Positions 5,185 through 55,590 of a DNA stretch of 64,000 nucleotides are shown here, piece after piece (position 1 is the stretch's first letter; every line of letters begins with the position of its first letter). A program made the position numbers and the translations under genes. The notes under the pieces are model-generated. The model was not told where the DNA came from. It saw only the letters and a list, made by a program, of their open reading frames with translations, and did not search any database. The DNA comes from Saccostrea cucullata (lineage: Eukaryota): positions 345,587-409,586 of the forward strand of contig NW_026931074.1 of NCBI RefSeq assembly GCF_032062105.1. Reading direction: 5' to 3'.

Positions 5185-5640
5185 GTGCTGAAAGCTCACT
5201 TGAGCTTTTTGATCAATGGGTGTCTGGCATCTGTCTATCTGTCTGCCAGTCCTCCTCACATTTTCAACTTTTTCCAAAAGAGAGGTCTTGTTTCAAGAAA
5301 TTTATACGAAAGCCCTACCTATTCAAAAGTTATGACCAAGGTTAAAGTTTTTAAAAAGTGGGTCCAACTCTTAGGTCAAGATCAAAAATATTTATAACAG
5401 GAAAGGTCTTTTCAAATGAATACACATGTGAAGTATGAAAGCCCCAGCTCCAACTGTTCAGAAGTTATGGCCAATGTTAAAGTCTCATATTTTTTGTAAA
5501 AGTAAATCAGACCCAAGGTCAAGAGGTTAAAATTGGTGGTACCAAAAGAAAGGTCATTCCCCAAGTAATACACCAGTGAAATATGAAAGCCATAGGAAAC
5601 TCAATACTTATGGGCTAGGTTTTTACAAAGACAGAGAGAC
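5185..5640. repeat. Copy of a dispersed repeat family (gtatgaaagcc..caactgttca.aagttatggccaa.gttaaagt..aaggtcaa..ggtaccaaaagaaaggtca)
   Basis: Related copies at 26800-27100, 27300-27496 and 30501-30650. The LTR retrotransposon at 27497-30500 sits inside one copy. 5419-5440 represents the uninterrupted (empty-site) version of the insertion point. Confidence 0.5.
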
Positions 5641-12780: not shown

Positions 12781-14110
12781 CTGTCTGTCGGTCTGTCGGT
12801 CGGTCTGTCGGTCCACTTAGTTTCCGTTCATTTTCTTCACAACCCTTGCACATACTGAAATGAAATTTGGTATACAGATATATCACATGAATATCTAGGT
12901 CAAGTTTTGTTTTGGGTACAATCACACCTTATTTGACAGAGTTATGCCCCTTGGACTTAGAAAAAATTTCAATTATTTGCAGTTTCCGTTCATTTTCTTC
13001 GCAACCGTTGCACACACTGAAATGAAATTTTGTATACTGATATATCACATGGATATCTAAGTCAAGTTCTGTTTTGGGTACGATAGCACCATTTTTGACA
13101 GAGTTATGCCCCTTGGACTTAGAAAAATTTCAATTATTTGCAGTTTCCGTTCATTTTCTTTGCAACAGTTGCACACATTGACATGAAATTTGGTATACAG
13201 ATTTATCAGATAAGTATCTAGGCCAAGTTCTGTTCTGGGTACGCATCATTTTTGACAGAGTTATGCCCCTTGGACTTAGAAAAATTTCAATTATTTGCAG
13301 TTTCCAGTCATTTTCTTCACAACCATTGCACACACTGAAATGAAATTTTGGATACAGATATATCACATGAATATTTAGGTCAAGTTCTGTTTTGTTTATG
13401 ATCCGCACCATTTTTGACAGAGTTATGCTCCTTGGACTTAGAAAAATTTCAATTACTTGCAGTTTCCATTCATTTTCTTCGCAATCGTTGCACATACTGA
13501 AATGAAATTTAGCGTACAGATTTATCAGAGGTATATCTAGACCAAGTTCTGTTCTGGGTACGATCGCACCATTTTTGACAGAGTTATGCCCCTTGGACTT
13601 AGAAAAATTTCAATTATTTGCAGTTTCCAGTCATTTTCTTCACAACCATTGCACACACTGAAATGAAATTTTGGATACAGATATATCACATGAATATTTA
13701 GGTCAAGTTCTGTTTTGTTTATGATCCGCACCATTTTTGACAGAGTTATGCCCCTTGGACTTAGAAAAATTTCAATTACTTGCAGTTTCCATTCATTTTC
13801 TTCGCAATCGTTGCACATACTGAAATGAAATTTAGCGTACAGATTTATCAGAGGTATATCTAGACCAAGTTCTGTTCTGGGTACGATCGCACCATTTTTG
13901 ACAGAGTTATGCCCCTTGGACTTAGAAAAATTCCAATTATTTGCAGTTTTCCTTCATTTTCTTTGTAGAGGTTGCACATACTGAGATGAAATTTGGTATA
14001 CAGATTTATCAGATAAATATCTAGATCAAGTTCTGTTTTGGGTACAATCGCACCATTTTTGATAGAGTTATGCCCTTTTGGATTTAGAAAAATTCCAATT
14101 TGGGGGGAGG
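12781..14110. repeat. Satellite array of about 8 units of about 160 bp, with a 322-bp higher-order repeat; preceded by a (GTCT/GTCG)n microsatellite at 12781-12815
   Basis: Unit cagtttccgttcattttcttc..ttgcacatactgaaatgaaattt.gtatacagat.tatca...tatctag.caagttctgttttgggtac...caccatttttgacagagttatgccccttggacttagaaaaatttcaattatttg recurs at about 12820, 12980, 13141, 13299, 13460, 13621, 13782 and 13942. 13299-13620 and 13621-13940 are near-identical. The minus-strand ORFs here are repeat artefacts. Confidence 0.85.
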
Positions 14111-17139: not shown

Positions 17140-17569
17140 GAGATACTTTCTCTTCAGAAAATAAAGAGCACAAGCTTGCCTATCTGAGATTTTTTAATCA
17201 TAAAATGCATCTGATACTAGTTTATACAAGCTAATTCAGAGAATCTGTGTCCCCCGCTTAGGGAATTCGTAAACGCATTTCGGGGGGGAGAGGGGATCGA
17301 GTCGGATCCCCCTGACTGGATTATTATGCCATTATTGTAGAAGTATTAAATGTATACATGTATACTGAAACAAATGAAATATGCCAGTATGGATATAAAG
17401 ATTTGATTGCTTATTCTTTATTATGTGTATAGAAGATCCTTTTTATATGGAATATTTATCACACTGTAATGATGATTTTATGAGTTTGTGCAAGCCAGAC
17501 CTCATAAATTTTTCATTTCATATGCTATCATTTATTAAAAAAAAAAGTATTTCGAAAAAAAAAGAAAAT

Positions 17570-17650
17570 GGTTCGTCCGGGATTTGAATCCGGCACCTCT
17601 CACATGTGAAGCGAGAGACATACCACTAGACCACAGAGCTACTTGCCGCA
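17570..17650 (-). pseudogene. tRNA-like retro-fragment or pseudogene (canonical D-loop through 3' CCA, then a T-run); anticodon loop reads CAC (Val-like)
   Basis: Minus strand reads ...GTAGCTCTGTGGTCTAGTGGTATGTCTCTCGCTTCACATGTGAGAGGTGCCGGATTCAAATCCCGGACGAACCA followed by TTTTCTTTTTTTTT. TGGTCTAGTGG D-loop, 7-bp anticodon stem with TTCACAT loop, and GGATTCAAATCC T-arm are recognisable. The 5' acceptor strand does not pair with the 3' end and CCA is genomically encoded. Confidence 0.4.
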
Positions 17651-17861: not shown

Positions 17862-18830
17862 CCAGTCAAAGCGTTCCCAATTAAAACCGTCCCGGTCAAA
17901 GCGTTGCCTGATTTTGGTCAAAGCGTACCATGATTTTGGTCAAAATGTCCCCAGATTTTGGTCAAAGCGCCCCCTGACATATTTTATAGAAATATGATAC
18001 TACAAAACCGCCCCCCGATTTTGGTCAAAGCGTCCCTTGATTTTGGTCAAAGCGCCCCCTGACATATTTTGATAGGAAAACATAGTTTCTAAACCGCCCC
18101 CTGATTTTGGTCAAAGCGTCCCTTGATTTTGGTCAAAGCGCCCCCTGACATATTTTATAGAAATATGATACTACGAAACCGCCCCCTGATTTTGGTCAAA
18201 GCGTCCCTTGATTTTGGTCAAAGCGCCCCCTGATTTTGGTCAAAGCGCCCCCTGACATATTTTGATAGGAAAACATAGTTTCTAAACCGCCCCCTGATTT
18301 TGGTCAAAGCGTCCCTTGATTTTGACCAAAGCGCCCCCAGATTTTGGTCAAAGCGCCCCCTGACATATTTTGACATATTTTTATAGGAAAAATAGTTTCT
18401 AAACCGCCCCCTGATTTTGGTCAAAGCGTCCCTTGATTTTGGTCAAAGCGCCCCCTGATTTTGGTCAAAGCGCCCCCTGACATATTTTGATAGTTTCTAA
18501 ACCCCCCCCAACTGATTTTGGTCAAAGCGTCTCTTGATTTTTGGTCAAAGCGCCCCCTGACATATTTTGATAGGAAAACGTAGTTTCTAAACCACCCCCT
18601 GTATGATTTTGGTCAAAGCGCCCCCACTCAAATTTGTTGTGTGAAAAAATGATGTTATTAAATTGTCCACAAAGCGCCCACTCGTTTTGGTCAAAGAGCC
18701 CCAGACATACTTTGTTTGAAAAAAAAAAATTATGTATTCAATCGCCCCCGAAATATTGGTCAAAGCGTCCCGTGATTTCGGTCTAATCGTCCCCTAATTT
18801 CGACCAAACCGTTCCCTAATATACCGGTAA
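17862..18830 (+). repeat. Left terminal satellite array of the foldback-like element (22-bp units, gattttggtcaaagcgcccc.t)
   Basis: About 40 tandem units with periodic tgacatattttataggaaaacatagtttctaaaccgcccc spacers. ORF 18218-18424 is an artefact of this array. Confidence 0.85.
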
Positions 18831-23299: not shown

Positions 23300-24390
23300 A
23301 AATCGATTTGGATGCGCTTTGAAAATTTGGGGTGGTATTCAAATATAAATTTTCTGTAAGGAGCGCTATATGTTACCAAACTTCAAACGTTGTTTTTCTA
23401 TTAAAAAATATGTCAGGGGGCGCTTTGACCAATATTTGGGGGCGCTTTGACCAAACTTCAAACGTTGTTTTTCTATTAAAAAATATATATTTTGACTAAT
23501 ATTTGGGGGCGCTTTGACCAAAATTTGGGGACGCATTGATCAATATTTGGGGGCATTTTGGAAACTTCGCTTTCTATAAAAATATGTCAGGGGGCGCTTT
23601 GACCAATATTTGGGGGCGCTTTGACCAAACTTCAAACGTTGTTTTTCTATTAAAAATATGTCAGGGGGCGCTTTGACCAAAATTTGGGGACGCATTGACC
23701 AATATTTGGGGGCATTTTGGAAACTTCGCTTTCTATAAAAATATGTCAGGGGGCGCTTTGACCAAAATTTGGGGGCGCTTTGACCAAAATTTGGGGGCGC
23801 TTTGACCAAACTTCAAACGTTGTTTTTCTATTAAAAATATGTCAGGGGGCGCTTTGACAAAATTTGGGGACGCATTGACCAATATTTGGGGGCATTTTGG
23901 AAACTTCGCTTTCTATAAAAATATGTCAGGGGGCGCTTTGACCAATATTTGGGGGCGCTTTGACCAAAATTTGGGGGCGCTTTAACCAAACCTCAAACGT
24001 TTTCTATTAAAAAATATGTCAGGGGGCGCTTTGACCAAATTTTGGGGACGCATTGACCAATATTTGGGGGCAATTCAGAAACTTCGTTTTCTATAAAAAT
24101 ATGTCAGGGGGCGCTTTGACCAAAATCAGGGGGCGCTTTGACCAATACTTGGGGGCGCTTTGACCAATATTTGGGGGCGCTTTGGAAACTTCGTTTTTCT
24201 ATAAAAATATGTCAGGGGACGCTTTGACCAAAATCAAGGGACGCTTTGACCAAAATCAGGGGGCGGTTTCGTAGTATCATATTTCTATAAAATATGTCAG
24301 GGGGCGCTTTGACCAAAATCAGGGGACATTTTGACCAAAATCATGGTACGCTTTGACCGGGACGGTTTTAATTGGGAACGCTTTGACTGG
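23300..24390 (-). repeat. Right terminal satellite array of the foldback-like element (same 22-bp unit, inverted)
   Basis: (agggggcgctttgaccaaaat)n with atatgtcag spacers, the reverse complement of the 17862-18830 array. ORF 23540-23809 is an artefact. Confidence 0.85.
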
Positions 24391-26239: not shown

Positions 26240-26800
26240 TCTGTAGTTCTGTCCATTCATCACAAAAACTTTAACCTTTTGTCATATCTTTTGATTGAGA
26301 CGAGATAGGGCTTTCATATTACACATTCATATTGCCTGTGACAAGATCTTTTTAAATACAGTAAGATTTTTGACACTGTGACCATGATGTTTGACCCTTT
26401 TTTTTCTTAATTAACATTACTTAAAAGTTAAATAATTGGCCATAACTTAATTTTGAATAAGAGATAAGGCTTTCATGTTATACATGTGTATTACCTGTGA
26501 CAAAACCTTTCTAAATACACTATGAGCTTTGACCTCGAGACTATTACCTTGAATTTTGACCTACTTTTCAAAAAATCAAACTTGGTCATGACTTTGAAAA
26601 AGTAGAGATAGGGCTTTCATATTAAACCTGTGCAATGCCTGTAACTAGACCTTTCTAAATACACTATGATTTTAACCTTGTGACCTTGACCGTGAAGTTT
26701 GACCTACTTTTTAAAAATGTTAATTTTCCTTATAACTTTTGATTGAGAAGAGATAGGGCTTTCATATTTGACATGTGCATTACCTGTGACCAGAAATATA
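26240..26800. repeat. Tandem repeat of about 4 units of about 140 bp
   Basis: Recurring unit ...gacctac.ttt..aaaa....a.ttt.c.tataactt.tgattgaga.gagatagggctttcat.tt..ac.tgtgcattacctgtgaca..a.ctttctaaatacactatga..tttgacct.g.gac. Seen at about 26255, 26400, 26540 and 26690. Confidence 0.7.
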
Positions 26801-27496
26801 AAAGTCAAAGCACCAGATATATATAGCATGCAAAAATTAAAAATTTATGACCAAGCTGGTTAAAGCTTTTCAAAATATGGGTTAAACTCCAAGGTCAAAG
26901 GGTCAAATTTAAGGTACTCAGGGGTAGGCCTAATGTAAGAAATGCTAATTTAAGCTCTAGCACCAACTGTGTAAAAGTTGTGGCCAACGTTAAAGTTTTT
27001 TTTCAAAAGAATATAAAATTTCATGGTCAAAAGGTACATTTGTTGTATCCAAAGGAAGGAAAGCCAAGATTAAAGTTGGAATTACCAAGATTAAAGTTGG
27101 AATTACCAACTTTTAAAAAAATATTGCGTGGCACTAATACGCTTCCGTAGTGTAGTGTTTCACAAACACATCTTATTTTAAAATATTTTTGCATGATGTT
27201 TTTTCCCCTTAATTCTGATCTATTTGCAGGACAAACAAGATGTGTTTGTGAAACACTGATGTCCCCATATGGTAACATAGCAAAGATTAAACTTTTTTTA
27301 AATGCAAAGAATTTATTATTTTGGTACCCAAAGAAAGGGATACGTTTTTGAAAGGTCGGTCAAACTCTAGGGTCAAAGACCAGGGACCTATATTAACTTA
27401 CTATATTAGTATACATGGTATATAGGTCCCTGCAAGGACAAAGGGTAAAAGTTGTTGGTTGAGAAAGAAAGGTCTTGTCACAAGGATTATATATAC

Positions 27497-28076
27497 TGTA
27501 ACGTTTTTCTCTCCATGGGGTGTTTGTTTCTACCCGCGTCACAAAATATTGTGGATCCCGTGTATAAATTCAGGAACTCTAGATCTTTATAGATCTAACA
27601 TAAGAACAACGACAAAGTTCGTTTCAACGAGTGTATTAACAATATCCAAGAGTAGTTTTACAAATCAATTCCAAGCTATGTATATCAACTCACTAACTCT
27701 CTCTCCTTATATACCCTGTCTGACACCTAACGTGATTTAGGGCACCTAGTTAGGGCGTTAGGCTCCATCGTTAGGGCACCTGTTAAGGCGTTAGGCTCCA
27801 TCATTAGGGCACCCTGTTAGGGCAATCGGCTCCATCATTAGGGCACCTATTAGGGCAATCGGCTCCAAGTATTAGGGCCTCTGCACCATTGTTAGGTATC
27901 AAGACACTTGATACATTTAGCATCTGATAAGCGCCATATTAATTAGGACACTAATTAGACTTCCAAGATAAGGGCGCTAATCAGTTACCATGGTTAGGGC
28001 TTATCAAATAAACAAAATTCTTATCTCTGTTTTATTTATAACAATAGCATTTTTATATAAAAGCAAAAACATTACA
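27497..28076 (-). repeat. 3' LTR (element orientation) of the gag-only LTR retrotransposon
   Basis: tgtaacgtttttctctccatggggtg....aaaagcaaaaacattaca. Contains about 4 tandem subrepeats of about 27 bp (ttagggcacct.ttagggc.ttaggctccatc) at 27740-27900. Confidence 0.85.
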
Positions 28077-28080
28077 TTGG

Positions 28081-28091
28081 TCCCTCCTTTT
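28081..28091 (-). other. Polypurine tract (minus strand AAAAGGAGGGA) immediately upstream of the 3' LTR
   Basis: Plus tccctcctttt at 28081-28091. Minus-strand aaaaggaggga, then acc aa, then LTR TG. Confidence 0.6.
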
Positions 28092-28383
28092 GAAACATGA
28101 CTTCCATTGTCATTAATATTTAAAACATGAACATGAGTTATACGTAAAACAAAATTACACAAATACGAAACAAAATCAACAGAAAGACAAAAAGTAAAAG
28201 AACAAAATTATATCAAATAAAAATGTAATTAGATTAAATCAAAAGTTTATCACACTAGTAGCTTCACATTTGGATTTCCCTGGCCTTATTTTCAACCTTT
28301 TCTCTTCCCCTTTTCCTGATTTAGGCTTTTCTTCCCTAGGGTTTTTAGGCCATATAAAGTTGACTGATACCTGACCTGCGGCA

Positions 28384-29286
28384 TCAGTCATCTGAGTTAA
28401 TATAATTCCTTACAGTTTTCTTTTCAACACAATTCAGGTCTCGAGAACTGTCACTTGGTTGAAATCTTCCTCCTTCTCTCTGGTACCATGGGTTGTAAGG
28501 GCGTCCCCTCCTCCCTGGTCCTGCATTGGTACATGTACTTGGGGTTCTCACATTTTTAAAGATACTGTTGAATCCGTCACCCGCGCTTGGAGGTTTGGCA
28601 GTATCCGCAGCTGCTATTTCATTATTCCATTCCCCATCTTCAATCTCATACACAGGCCTATAGCCTGGTTTTGTCTCCTTTGGCAATTCTTTTTCTCCAA
28701 TCCGCAAGCACTCTTCTTGCATCGCATTAAGAACTGCTTCTTGAAGTGTCCTGGGTCTGGTCCGTTTCACTGCAAGTCGAAAATCCCCAGATTGTCCACA
28801 CTTATCTAAGAAGGACTGTATAGCATTTTCTTCAACTAAATCTGGATTTCCTGGATAGGCCCTTCGGTACAAATCTTCGATGGCCTGTCCTAAATCTCGC
28901 AGGGACTCACCCGGTAGTCGTCTCCTTAATTTTACATCCGCAATATATTTTTCTTTCATTGCAGAATGTCCAAATCTTTGATTCATTTTATCCTTTAGTT
29001 GCTCATAATCACTCTGTACAGTAAGGGGCATTCCATAGGCATAGCTCTCGGCCTGTCCTCGCAAGGTGCTAAGTAGAACTCTGCGAGAAGGTCCCCATGA
29101 GTTTAATTCTGAGATGTTTTCGAAATATTGTAGAAACTCATCCCAAACATCATTATTGGCCCCTGAGAAGGTCCTCCTTACTGGATATTCATTGGTTCGT
29201 TGACCAGCATTTGGTGTCGTAAGACTGTTTGTAGGTGTCCCGTCAGTAGTAGGAAATTCAAAATTGTACCCAAGTCCCTGAGGAGA
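28384..29286 (-). CDS. Retrotransposon gag-like protein, about 300 codons open with no pol
   Basis: Hand-translating the frame of ORF 28384-29064 upstream to the TAG at 29287-29289 gives ...SPQGLGYNFEFPTTDGTPTNSLTTPNAGQRTNEYPVRRTFSGANNDVWDEFLQYFENISELNSWGPSRRVLLSTLRGQAESYAYGMPLTVQSDYEQLKDKMNQRFGHSAMKEKYIADVKLRRRLPGESLRDLGQAIEDLYRRAYPGNPDLVEENAIQSFLDKCGQSGDFRLAVKRTRPRTLQEAVLNAMQEECLRIG... This fits the retrotransposon_gag pattern (W..F...F.......L.G.A..W; R.F..GL...I; PRTL.EA). It is followed directly by the PPT and LTR. Confidence 0.7.
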   Translation of the reverse strand, partial: SPQGLGYNFEFPTTDGTPTNSLTTPNAGQRTNEYPVRRTFSGANNDVWDEFLQYFENISELNSWGPSRRVLLSTLRGQAESYAYGMPLTVQSDYEQLKDKMNQRFGHSAMKEKYIADVKLRRRLPGESLRDLGQAIEDLYRRAYPGNPDLVEENAIQSFLDKCGQSGDFRLAVKRTRPRTLQEAVLNAMQEECLRIGEKELPKETKPGYRPVYEIEDGEWNNEIAAADTAKPPSAGDGFNSIFKNVRTPSTCTNAGPGRRGRPYNPWYQREGGRFQPSDSSRDLNCVEKKTVRNYINSDD

Positions 29287-29290
29287 CTAA

Positions 29291-29900
29291 TTACCCAAAT
29301 AAGGAGTATCCAGATTGCCCAGAAACTTTAGGTTCCTGACAGGTACCTGTAGGGGCGTTAGGTGCACTACCACCAGTATAGGGTGTATCACTGGATATCA
29401 AAGAAATTTCCCTTTCCTTACTGGCATTCAGCAGACCAGATCCATACTTCCATAACACTCTGATTACCGTAACAAGGAATATCATACTTGTTATCGATAT
29501 TAGAGAAATTACTGCATTTTCTTGAGATTCCTGCACGATCTTGTTTTCTGGAAAATAGATCCAGGTCATCACCATCAGGAAACATATCCTATCAAACCAA
29601 AGAGTATCCAAATACATAGGATTCTCTTTAAGCTTGGCCTTGGATCGTACTTGCTTTTAATAGAAAGACCCTGCGAGTTTTGCCCGAACTCCTGAAAGTT
29701 AGGACTGTCTGGCATTACTCGACTTGTGGGCTGCAAACTTGTTCTACACCCCGTATCGACCTCTATTCCTGAGTCATTCAGATGAGCTGGACTTTCGAAG
29801 TACTGTCCTACCTTTCTAGGCATAACTCTCTTCCTTACGATGGGTGTCTCCATTTCAAACTCTGTGCTGTCTAGTGTTACACGTAAAATAATTTCTTTGG
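29291..29900 (-). pseudogene. Frameshifted N-terminal region of the element's gag polyprotein (ORFs 29575-29940 and 29291-29617 in two other frames)
   Basis: Pro/Thr/Gly-rich tails of ORF 29291-29617 (...TGGSAPNAPTGTCQEPKVSGQSGYSLFG*) and the start of the gag frame (SPQGLGYNFEFPTTDGTPT...) look like one protein broken by a 1-nt indel near 29290. A second shift lies near 29575-29617. Contains a 22-residue hydrophobic segment (AVISLISITSMIFLVTVIRVLW). Confidence 0.4.
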
Positions 29901-29918
29901 ATCCCACCGCTGCCACCA
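29899..29918 (-). other. Primer-binding site (minus strand TGGTGGCAGCGGTGGGATCC), 2 nt after the 5' LTR
   Basis: Plus-strand GGATCCCACCGCTGCCACCA reads as a tRNA 3' end (acceptor/T-stem followed by CCA). On the minus strand the PBS begins with TGG, the classical tRNA-primed PBS configuration. Confidence 0.7.
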
Positions 29919-29920
29919 AT

Positions 29921-30500
29921 TGTAACGTTTTTCTCTCCATGGGGTGTTTGTTTCTACCCGCGTCACAAAATATTGTGGATCCCGTGTATAAATTCAGGAA
30001 CTCTAGATCTTTATAGATCTAACATAAGAACAACGACAAAGTTCGTTTCAACGAGTGTATTAACAATATTCAAGAGTAGTTTTACAAATCAATTCCAAGC
30101 TATGTATATCAACTCACTAACTCTCTCTCCTTATATACCCTGTCTGACACCTAACGTGATTTAGGGCACCTAGTTAGGGCGTTAGGCTCCCTCGTTAGGG
30201 CACCTGTTAGGGCGTTAGGCTCCATCATTAGGGCACCCTGTTAGGGCAATCGGCTCCATCATTAGGGCACCTATTAGGGCAATCGGCTCCAAGTATTAGG
30301 GCCTCTGCACCATTGTTAGGTATCAAGACACTTGATACATTTAGCATCTGATAAGCGCCATATTAATTAGGACACTAATTAGACTTCCAAGATAAGGGCG
30401 CTAATCAGTTACCATGGTTAGGGCTTATCAAATAAACAAAATTCTTATCTCTGTTTTATTTATAACAATAGCATTTTTATATAAAAGCAAAAACATTACA
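29921..30500 (-). repeat. 5' LTR (element orientation) of the gag-only LTR retrotransposon
   Basis: About 99.5% identical to 27497-28076. Differs at about 3 positions (ccatcg/ccctcg, ttaagg/ttaggg, atatcc/atattc). Confidence 0.85.
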
Positions 30501-30699
30501 ATACGAAGTATGAAAGTCATATGAGTAACTGTTCAAAAGTTAAGGCCAAGGTTAAGGTAAAAAAAAAAAATAATAATAAGTGAAACGCCAAGATCAAGGT
30601 AATAGGGTCAAAGTTTTTGGTATCCAATCAAAGGTCATGGGGGTTAACATTTACTATAGGGACACTATCCCTAGTACACTTCAGTACATCATATTACTT

Positions 30700-51252: not shown

Positions 51253-52188
51253 TGACCAAACTTGGTACAAAGCATCCTTGGGTAAAGGGGAATTTAAATT
51301 GTTAAAATGAAGGGACATATCCCCTCGCAAGGGGAGATAATCAAGAAAAGACAAAAATAGGGTGGGGTCATTAAAAAATCTTCTTCTCAAGAACCACTGG
51401 GCCAGAAAAGCTGAAACTTATGTGGAAGCATCCTGGGGTAGTGTAGATTCTAAATTGTTCAAATCATGACCCCCGGGGGAAGGGCGGGGCCACAATGGGG
51501 AATCAAAGTTTTACATAGAAATATATAGGAAAAATCTTTGAAAATCTTCTTCTCAAGAACCACTGGGCCAGAAAAGCTGAAACTTATGTGGAAGCATCCT
51601 GGTATAATGTAGATTCTAAATTGTTCAAATAATGACCCCCGGGGGATGGGTGGGGCCACAATGGGGAATCAAAGTTTCATATAGAAATATATAGGAAATA
51701 TCTTTGTCAAGAACCACTGCTGAAACTTATGTGGAAGCATCCTGGTATAATGTAGATTCTAAATTGTTCAAAAAATGACACCCGGGGGGAGGGCGGGGCC
51801 ACAATGGGGAATCAAAGTTTTATATAGAAATATATAGGAAAAATCTTTGAAAATTTTCTTCTCAAGAACCACTGGGCCAGAAAAAGTGAAGCTTATGTGG
51901 AAGCATTCTTGGGTAGTGTTAATTCTAAATTGTAGGAATCATGACCCCCGGGGGAAGGGCGGGGCCATTATAGGGAATCAAAGTTTTACATAGAAATATA
52001 TAGGAAAAATCTTTGAAAATCTTCTTCTCAGGAACCACTGGGCCAAAAAAGCTGAAACATATGTGCCCATGGAAGGATCATGGGGTAGTGTAGATTTCAA
52101 AATGTCTAAATTATGATCAGTGGGGTAGGGTGGGGATGCATTATGTATAACAAGGGTGAAATCTGGTAAAGAACAGAATGGTCAAAGC

Positions 52189-54469: not shown

Positions 54470-55590
54470 CTTTGCTGGCTTAAGGCTGTGAGATTTGTAT
54501 TTAGGAGGCTTTTATTGAGTTGGTTAGATATAGGTAGGAGTCTTAAATTGAGTCATCTCAAACTAGGCTGTGAGATATTTTAGCCTTAATTTGTTTAAGA
54601 TCTCTCTGAATAGGCTGTGAGATATTTTTATATAAGAGCCTTTGTTTGAGTTATCTCAGACCAGACAGTGAGATACCCAGGAATTTATAAGCCTTAATTT
54701 GTTGAAGTCCTCTCAAACTAAGTTTGTGGGATATATTTATATATTAGCCTTTGTTGAATGTTTATAGTCCTCTCTGACTAAGGCTAAGCTGTGAGATATA
54801 TTTATTTGAGGCCTTGGTTTGAGTCATCTTTGACTAGACAGTGTGATTTATTTATAAAGGAGTCTTTGTTTAAGTTCTCTCAGATCAGGCAGTGAGATAA
54901 ATAGGATTCTGTTTGAGTTCTTTCAGACAAGACTGTGAGATATACAATTTTGTTTGAGTCCTCTCAGATCAGGCTGTGGGATATATAGGATTCTGTTTGA
55001 GTCCTCTCAGACCAGGCTGTGAGATAAACAATCCTGTTTGAGTCCTCTCAGACTAGTCTGTGAGATATATAGGATTCTTTTTGAGTCCTCTCAGACCAGG
55101 CTGTGAGATATATAGGATTCTGTTTGAGTCCTCTCAGACCAGGCTGTGAGATAAACAATTCTGTTTGAGTCCTCTCAGACCAGGCTGTGAGATATATAGG
55201 ATTCTGTTTGAGTCCTCTCAGACCAGGCTGTGAGATAAACAATTCTGTTTGAGTCCTCTCAGACTAGGCTGTGAGATATATAGGATTCTCTTTGAGTCCT
55301 CTCAGACCAGGCTGTGAGATATACAATTCTGTTTGAGTTGTCTCAGACTAGGCTGTGAGATATATAGGATTCTGTTTGAGTTCTCTCAGACTAGGCTGTG
55401 AGATATATAGGATTCTGTTTGAGTCCTCTCAGACCAGGCTGTGAGATATGTAAGATTCTGTTTGAGTCCCCTCAGACCAGGCTGTGAGATATATAGGATT
55501 CTGTTTGAGTCCTCTCAGACCAGGCTGTGAGATATATAGGATTCTGTTTGAGTCCTCTCAGACTAGGCTGTGAGATATAGGGAGTCTCTG
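54470..55590. repeat. Minisatellite of about 25 units of 41-43 bp in the gene B intron between exon 2b and exon 3
   Basis: Unit gagtcctctcagaccaggctgtgagatatataggattctgttt with variant ...gagataaacaattctgttt. Copies are degenerate at the 5' side (54470-54900) and homogenised at the 3' side. ORF 55048-55242(-) is an artefact. Confidence 0.85.

Follow-up and report, generated by a model that had tools for sequence, protein, structure and literature searches.

A recently inserted, pol-less LTR retrotransposon copy in Saccostrea cucullata, probably a defective derivative of a Ty3/gypsy family

The 64,000-nucleotide (64-kb) stretch of the Saccostrea cucullata genome analysed here (the window; NCBI RefSeq assembly GCF_032062105.1, contig NW_026931074.1, positions 345,587 to 409,586 of the forward strand) carries a copy of a long terminal repeat (LTR) retrotransposon at 27497-30500 in window coordinates, on the minus strand. 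This element is 3,004 bp long, with an interior of 1,844 bp between its LTRs. An earlier reading, made from the letters of the window without database searches (the sequence-only reading), had already described two 580-bp TG..CA LTRs with about three differences, an ATAC duplication of 4 bp on either side and a minus-strand interior of 1.84 kb with gag-type content, and all of these are borne out, the last by a capsid fold in the open frame. The ends of the element are made up of the following features:

27493-27496, no strand: left copy of the target site duplication (TSD), ATAC, read from the sequence
27497-28076, minus strand: 3′ LTR in element sense, 580 bp, TG..CA
27705-27715, minus strand: TATA-like box GGTATATAAGG (sense) of the 3′ LTR, read from the sequence, function putative
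27737-27867, minus strand: 33-bp tandem repeat, 3.9 units, TTAGGG-rich, in U3 just upstream (sense) of the TATA box
28077-28080, minus strand: 4-nt spacer CCAA between the polypurine tract (PPT) and the 3′ LTR
28081-28091, minus strand: PPT AAAAGGAGGGA, preceding the 3′ LTR
29899-29918, minus strand: primer-binding site (PBS) TGGTGGCAGCGGTGGGATCC, the reverse complement of these positions, matching tRNA-Leu(AAG)
29919-29920, minus strand: AT spacer that sets the PBS 2 nt from the 5′ LTR
29921-30500, minus strand: 5′ LTR in element sense, 580 bp, TG..CA
30129-30139, minus strand: TATA-like box of the 5′ LTR, read from the sequence, function putative
30161-30291, minus strand: 5′ LTR copy of the 33-bp tandem repeat array at 27737-27867
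30501-30504, no strand: right copy of the TSD, ATAC, read from the sequence

The two LTRs are identical at 577 of 580 positions and differ by exactly three mismatches. In the whole window, a 30-mer taken from the LTR finds only the two LTR sites, where the number expected by chance is 0. The site as it would have been before insertion was reconstructed by joining the two flanks through one ATAC. It aligns, gap-free over the junction, to a dispersed repeat at 5401-5483 (76% over 84 bp, E 1e-10), a paralogue that spans the empty site and so gives independent support to the boundaries of the element. The structural marks of an LTR retrotransposon are thus found together: TG..CA LTRs, a PBS and a PPT, and a TSD in a target that is uninterrupted elsewhere.

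The hexamer TTAGGG is the vertebrate-type telomeric repeat, which is reported for bivalves too. It is found on the plus strand (CCCTAA in element sense) nine times in each LTR (27737-27994 and 30161-30418), mostly inside the 33-bp repeat of U3, and 18 of its 44 occurrences in the window fall in the two LTRs.

Eight genomic contexts of homologous gags (L001-L008) were fetched, from genomes of Mytilus and from contigs of sequencing runs. Over its first 18 nt, the PBS of the element can pair with the 3′ end of tRNA-Leu(AAG), as judged against published human sequences: a probe for the 3′ end of human tRNA-Leu(AAG), TGGTGGCAGCGGTGGGAT..., is identical to these 18 nt (PMC6103689), and the fragment tRF-Leu-AAG, ATCCCACCGCTGCCACCA, is their exact complement (PMC9161985). 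The same PBS lies 1-2 nt past the LTR end in all fetched relatives that cover the LTR/PBS junction (L001-L005), and no tRNA genes were found in the fetched loci. Thus, the tRNA-complementary PBS at 2 nt from the 5′ LTR was rightly recognized from the sequence alone. The PPT was also correctly located, but it does not abut the 3′ LTR as had been stated, since the CCAA spacer intervenes; the relative L006 has an identical arrangement of PPT, CCAA and TGTA. Elsewhere in the window, ARAGORN reports a tRNA-Val(CAC) at 17569-17639 (minus strand), while Rfam at its gathering threshold reports no RNA family; the tRNA-Val call may be a tRNA-like or short interspersed element (SINE)-related sequence or a false call.

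The interior retains the traces of a gag gene and of the beginning of pol, in the order given here by position; the gag lesions were called by alignment to L006 and L003:

28092-28238, minus strand: AT-rich non-coding tail, a 3′ untranslated region (3′ UTR) remnant 3′ of an internal deletion, about 150 nt up to the PPT
28239-28391, minus strand: remnant of the 5′ end of pol, MTDAAGQVSVNFIWPKNPREEKPKSGKGE..., homologous to residues 1-29 of L008 pol
28347-28402, minus strand: decayed gag-pol -1 frameshift cassette, seen by comparison with relatives
28347-28351 and 28373-28377, minus strand: arms of a possible pseudoknot of the cassette
28361-28371 paired with 28380-28390, minus strand: 11-bp stimulatory hairpin of the cassette, intact
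28396-28402, minus strand: slippery site, TTTAAAC mutated to TATTAAC, with the gag stop also lost
28384-29286, minus strand: open 300-codon part of gag, with linker, capsid (CA) and an Arg/Gly-rich C-terminus without a CCHC knuckle (from the open reading frame (ORF), homologues and a model)
about 29088/29089, minus strand: 6-bp in-frame deletion that removes the conserved capsid residues EK (from the alignment)
29287-29289, minus strand: premature TAG (CAG in L006), which separates N-terminal gag from the capsid frame
29291-29617, minus strand: frame-B gag segment with the second hydrophobic helix, bounded by the +2 insertion and the 5-bp deletion
29308/29309, minus strand: junction of a 5-bp deletion, a gag frameshift
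29575-29853, minus strand: N-terminal gag segment in frame A, starting METPIVRKRV (ATG at 29851-29853) and ending inside the first hydrophobic helix at the +2 frameshift
within 29584-29587, minus strand: 2-bp (+2) insertion, a gag frameshift
L001:11610-11684, L003:1657-1731, L005:2144-2218, L006:1602-1676 and L008:1030-1104, no strand: frameshift cassettes of the relatives (from the alignment)

The open frame of about 300 codons, which the sequence-only reading had assigned to gag, is at the expected place. An AlphaFold (AF2) model of this ORF has confidence values (pLDDT) of 82-93 over residues 1-170, and its best Foldseek matches in the PDB are the PNMA2 capsid (E 2.2e-4), the C-terminal domain of Arc, the dArc1/2 capsids and the CA of murine leukemia virus (MLV). 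The model of a full-length Gag homologue retrieves the same PDB capsids. According to these predicted structures, the open frame is the capsid domain of gag, with the two-lobed fold of retroviral and Arc-type capsids. In addition, a search of a collection of 5.8 billion protein clusters yielded 151 Gag homologues of 200-520 aa, with a best identity of 83%. The named top homologues are from Mytilus coruscus, M. edulis and M. galloprovincialis, and are labelled 'Retrotransposon gag domain-containing protein'. More distant members of this Gag family do have a CCHC knuckle. Three homologues (P0080, P0102 and P0058) are deposited under Candidatus Thiodiazotropha symbiont bins and 'invertebrate metagenome'; these entries are most simply explained by contamination with retrotransposon DNA of the host bivalve.

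Upstream of the capsid, the gene is broken. The +2 insertion followed by the 5-bp deletion makes the frames run A-B-A, so that the N-terminal third is indeed split, as had been noted from the sequence, although into three segments in two frames and not over three frames. The open 300-codon frame has no ATG ahead of the capsid domain, and the normal stop codon of gag is lost. With these lesions, the gag of the element reads as a pseudogene. In its capsid core, pairwise ratios of nonsynonymous to synonymous change (dN/dS, or omega) are 0.04-0.09 (dN 0.084 and dS 0.95 against L006; dN 0.063 and dS 1.6 against L008), omega on the element's own branch is about 0.06, and the element-specific changes are distributed 6/3/28 over codon positions 1/2/3. 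The low dN/dS, together with the bias towards third positions, indicates that gag was functional for most of the history of the lineage and that the lesions came late. Purifying selection would thus have acted strongly on the capsid for most of the way to this copy, with disabling lesions that are comparatively recent.

The 3′ end of gag shows what the element has descended from. In all five relatives that span the gag-pol junction (L001, L003, L005, L006 and L008), gag ends in ...TTTAAAC TA(A/G), where TTTAAAC is the canonical U UUA AAC slippery heptamer and gives Gag a conserved Leu-Asn C-terminus. The heptamer and stop, which are invariant in these five, have undergone about five changes in the element. 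Downstream, the hairpin reaches 92% pairing in six sequences, which also provide the evidence of covariation, with four pairs changed on both sides; slid controls attain no more than 18-36%. The potential pseudoknot of 5 bp (AGGCC/GGCCU) is fully pairable. The conserved TTTAAAC-stop-hairpin arrangement makes a clean candidate for a -1 frameshift signal that could be tested by experiment in a mollusc retroelement.

Beyond the cassette, the remnant of pol is 52% identical to residues 1-29 of L008 pol over 29 aa, with an E value of 2.7e-5 obtained in a three-sequence database, and it also matches the equivalent sequences of L003 and L005. This homology covers the first 30-45 codons or so and stops ahead of the protease. 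In the AT-rich tail that follows, only the last 40 nt or so align to L004/L006. When the pol proteins of the relatives were used in tblastn searches, no pol-like coding sequence was found in the 64-kb window; the lack of protease (PR), reverse transcriptase (RT), RNase H (RH) and integrase (IN), previously noted from the letters, is thereby upheld.

Most of the fetched relatives have what the element lacks. Pol adjoins gag in L001 (from the M. coruscus assembly), L002, L005 and L007, and gag runs straight into an aspartic protease in L003, which has the closest full Gag (70% amino acid identity), and in L008 (75% nucleotide identity). Along the pol proteins of the relatives, the Pfam matches are, in order, gag-asp_proteas, RVT_1, RT_RNaseH_2, Integrase_H2C2 and rve. 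The layout of the pol-bearing relatives is PBS, gag, TTTAAAC with stop and hairpin, and PR-RT-RNaseH-IN, sometimes followed by an extra 3′ ORF. This last ORF has 182 aa and no Pfam match in L001 (16388-16936), and 231 aa with weak matches to C2H2 zinc fingers in L002 (4360-5055). The order of the pol domains is that of Ty3/gypsy and not of BEL/Pao. A BEL/Pao affiliation was rejected, as the Pfam family DUF1759 reaches only 16 bits on the element ORF, below its cutoff of 25.4, and the pol of the relatives matches the gypsy-type models RT_RNaseH_2 and Integrase_H2C2, not Pao models.

The closest relative at the DNA level is the pair L004/L006, recovered from two sequencing runs and 99.7% identical to each other, with 78% nucleotide identity to the element from the LTR end through gag. 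Both are likewise devoid of a complete pol: a degenerate gag is followed by about 65 codons of pol, a fragment of the 3′ ORF (at 1852-2148 in L006, where it matches the 182-aa ORF of L001) and the PPT+CCAA+TGTA junction. Their breakpoints differ from those of the element, as their pol remnant extends to about residue 65 and the 3′ ORF is kept, and the comparison leans towards deletions that are independent of each other or nested. The pol remnant and the frameshift cassette argue that the element itself, as read from these traces, comes from a gag-pol Ty3/gypsy family by internal deletion and is not a separate class.

How the deletion relates to the insertion is a separate question. The explanation favoured here is that the element is probably a non-autonomous LTR retrotransposon of Ty3/gypsy (Metaviridae) type with an internal deletion, which integrated recently and was already defective when it was mobilised in trans. 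Everything that acts in cis has been kept: the LTRs with their tandem-repeat and TATA region, the 18-nt tRNA-Leu(AAG) PBS, the PPT, the TG..CA ends and the 4-bp TSD. By contrast, a copy with no PR, RT, RH or IN has no means of autonomous transposition, and the element would make no functional protein, as predicted from its frames. That the insertion is recent, as the earlier reading held, follows from the three differences between the LTRs; the divergence of 0.52% (about 0.26% per LTR) would correspond to 0.3-3 Myr or so if the yearly rate per site is assumed to lie between 1e-8 and 1e-9.

If one small indel is assumed for roughly every 8-10 substitutions, and no gene conversion between the LTRs, the three mismatches in 580 positions predict, for the time after insertion, about five mutations and less than one small indel in an interior of 1,844 bp. 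What is observed is a deletion of several kb, four small indels (+2, -5, -6 and -1), one nonsense codon and a number of changes in the otherwise invariant TTTAAAC-stop. These lesions are too many for the interval after insertion, which argues that most of them, and probably the deletion of pol, were already in the template RNA. In such a course of events, an ancestral gag-pol element would have lost the region from the protease through the 3′ ORF; a defective source copy would have been transcribed, with most lesions and probably the pol deletion present in the RNA; and this RNA would have been packaged, reverse-transcribed from a tRNA-Leu primer and integrated by means of Gag and Pol that an autonomous relative provided in trans.

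Several points weigh against this explanation. Pfam finds no Retrotrans_gag (PF03732) in the ORFs of the element, where this check had been proposed together with the assignment to gag, and only the sub-threshold DUF1759 match is seen; in addition, a profile search of the PDB sequences with the Gag alignment gives 0 matches. PF03732 matches only one of 33 members of the Gag family (E 1.5e-5), and, as this gag is recognized by its fold, the Pfam test is too narrow; the fold still identifies it as gag. The Ty3/gypsy assignment comes through relatives that are 70-78% identical in gag and not from a pol of the element. Searches of the protein, metagenome, genome and viral collections brought to light no other copy that has this LTR or this deletion junction. 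In particular, no protein at least 90% identical to that of the element is present in the collection of 5.8 billion clusters (the best being 83%), metagenome contigs searched with the element protein gave nothing, the same contigs yielded just two distant loci (L009 and L010) to the Gag alignment, and the pattern of LTR end and PBS had 0 matches in genome contigs and viral contigs. The indel argument leans on a typical ratio of indels to substitutions and on the absence of gene conversion between LTRs, and some of the indels could be assembly errors, although +2, -5 and -6 are not of the homopolymer type. Finally, mobilisation of the defective form in trans is reconstructed and not observed.

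The serious rival, although rather unlikely on balance, is decay in place: a full-length autonomous element would have inserted, and the deletion of pol and the lesions of gag would have arisen at this locus. Such a history agrees with the clear descent from a gag-pol element that is seen in the pol remnant and the frameshift cassette, and with the codon-position bias of the capsid, by which gag was functional until recently. It also agrees with the failure to find other copies sharing the deletion junction in the four kinds of collections, and with the different breakpoints of L004/L006, as these imply that deletions arise independently in the clade. Nevertheless, the LTR differences allow for about five mutations and less than one small indel in the interior, and the indels, nonsense codon, TTTAAAC-stop changes and multi-kb deletion found there would then need bad luck or a homogenisation of the LTRs by gene conversion.

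It is quite improbable, and less likely than either mobilisation of a defective copy or decay in place, that the element belongs to a genuine semi-autonomous family of TR-GAG type with a functional gag and a borrowed Pol, its lesions being post-insertional or sequencing errors. The 300 codons from the capsid to the C-terminus are open, and the capsid core has an omega of about 0.06 on the element's branch, but a low omega is equally expected from autonomous ancestors, and at least five lesions disable or damage gag, with no ATG ahead of the capsid in the open frame. The changes accumulated in the heptamer and stop look as if the expression of pol had long been irrelevant; however, the element-specific rate of change in the region of the frameshift cassette and pol start (0.118 per site) cannot be told apart from that of L006. 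L004/L006, the nearest DNA relative, is likewise pol-less, yet its gag is broken too and its breakpoints are others, and the protein, metagenome, genome and viral collections yielded no close copy that would make up a family. Lastly, it is hardly credible that there is no insertion at all: that the direct repeats are paired by chance, or that the assembly has created them, is backed only by the general possibility that assemblies collapse repeats, and this reading is effectively refuted by a 580-bp repeat of 99.5% identity with TG..CA ends, the 18-nt match to a tRNA 3′ end at the canonical PBS position, the PPT, the 4-bp TSD, the uninterrupted paralogue of the target, and a capsid-fold gag with colinear homology to relatives from the PBS through the PPT.

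Some of these alternatives can be compared with known systems. TR-GAGs are non-autonomous LTR retrotransposons of plants that keep a GAG ORF without the enzymes (PMC13570524); among the matches listed, the literature on TR-GAGs and non-autonomous LTR retrotransposons is on plants. The element resembles them in its size below 4 kb, its LTR-PBS-gag-PPT layout and its lack of PR/RT/RH/IN, and differs in that its gag is not intact and the start of pol and the frameshift cassette remain. LARDs, by contrast, are large (more than 4 kb) and have a non-coding internal domain (criterion quoted in PMC13570524), whereas the element has 3.0 kb and an interior that is mostly gag-derived. The TR-GAG/LARD class proposed by the sequence-only reading is therefore not supported, since gag is disabled (two frameshifts, a TAG, a 6-bp deletion and a lost stop), a remnant of pol is kept and the length falls short of a LARD.

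A better parallel is found in the defective copies of Ty3/gypsy families; in the mosquito Culex, for instance, truncated copies are grouped with the active master family (PMC3286476). Like such copies, the element has kept its LTRs, PBS, PPT and TSD, has lost pol, retains remnants of ORFs and has pol-bearing relatives. The difference is that a parent with at least 90% LTR identity was not recovered, the closest pol-bearing relatives being 70-75% identical in gag. The element is, in this sense, an ordinary defective copy of an LTR retrotransposon that depends on an autonomous relative. As a well-preserved defective copy, it is useful for repeat annotation, and it marks a recent retrotransposition, with some autonomous relative active at the time of insertion.

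With the Ty3/gypsy elements of Mytilus, such as L001 of M. coruscus, the element shares the PBS TGGTGGCAGCGGTGGGAT, the TTTAAAC-stop-hairpin junction, 45-83% Gag identity and a Gag architecture consisting of a disordered N-terminus, a hydrophobic hairpin and a capsid; unlike it, they carry PR-RT-RH-IN and, in some cases, the extra 3′ ORF. Another mytilid Ty3/gypsy-type LTR retrotransposon, the Steamer-like MchSLE1 of Mytilus chilensis, has a single gag-pol ORF, LTRs of 185 bp, a tRNA-Asn PBS and a Gag that is recognizable only by its zinc fingers (PMC11046912). An identity with Steamer-like elements was rejected, as ORF layout, LTR length, PBS and Gag all differ and MchSLE1 is a separate lineage. 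An identity with Troyka was likewise rejected, given its CG..CG ends and 3-bp TSD.

The N-terminal part of Gag has a further characteristic. The hydrophobic, transmembrane (TM)-like stretch that had been noted in the element (ENAVISLISITSMIFLVTVIRVLWK, with a Kyte-Doolittle peak of 2.28) is real and is a conserved trait of the family, as all 15 homologues long enough for this region, which include P0003, P0004, P0038 and P0046, have two hydrophobic segments of at least 19 aa (Kyte-Doolittle above 1.6). In most of the 15, including the closest relatives, these segments flank a loop W(I/V)YFPxNxVVQKSQEYV, and the pair is common to the close group with an RG tail and to the distant group with CCHC. 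AlphaFold (AF2) predicts a helical hairpin for residues 90-161 of P0004 (pLDDT 75-88), with a disordered linker and then the capsid downstream of it, and L002 encodes hairpin and capsid in a single uninterrupted ORF of 515 codons. In the element, the +2 frameshift cuts the first helix, and the second is intact (29291-29617, minus strand).

That Gag inserts into membranes by means of this hairpin is a hypothesis, under which a conserved hairpin of bivalve Gag proteins would link the assembly of capsids to membranes in an unusual manner. A full-text literature search found no description of a membrane-anchored Gag with a two-helix hairpin. The nearest analogue found is the sORF2/FAST-like protein of the Drosophila MDG1 group, a separate ORF of 60-210 aa upstream of gag with one TM helix and an N-myristoylation motif (bioRxiv 10.1101/2025.03.14.642691). 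Both are membrane-spanning segments at the 5′ end of a Ty3/gypsy element, adjoining the capsid gene; in the family of the element, by contrast, two helices are fused in frame to Gag, and the start is METP and not MGxxxS/T. That the Gag hairpin might resemble sORF2 in function is speculation by analogy. A wider reading, put forward tentatively, is that the element could be a dead member of an apparently undescribed clade of bivalve Ty3/gypsy elements, in which a TM hairpin anchors Gag to membranes and replaces the retroviral matrix, a UUUAAAC-stop-hairpin/pseudoknot directs -1 frameshifting for pol, and pol-less gag-bearing derivatives (the element and L004/L006) have appeared repeatedly and live on as parasites at the expense of the autonomous elements. 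If this were true, the pol-less derivatives would be an animal counterpart of the plant TR-GAGs.

The remaining observations concern other repeats of the window. An array of 2.3 units of 144 bp lies just upstream of the insertion site, at 26459-26794, so that the element sits in repeat-rich DNA. Satellite-like arrays are found at 12819-14100 (162 bp, 8 units), 54867-55579 (43 bp, 16.8 units) and 51375-52065 (166 bp, 2 units or more). A tandem repeat of about 85 bp (GGGGGCGCTTTGACCAAAAT... units) forms two arrays in opposite orientation, at 17931-18560 and 23505-24354, about 5 kb apart, which could mark the two ends of some larger repeat or element. Finally, a perfect 21-bp tandem duplication is present at 27064-27105 and is adjoined, at 27154-27257, by an inverted repeat of 25 nt with 96% complementarity and a 54-nt spacer.

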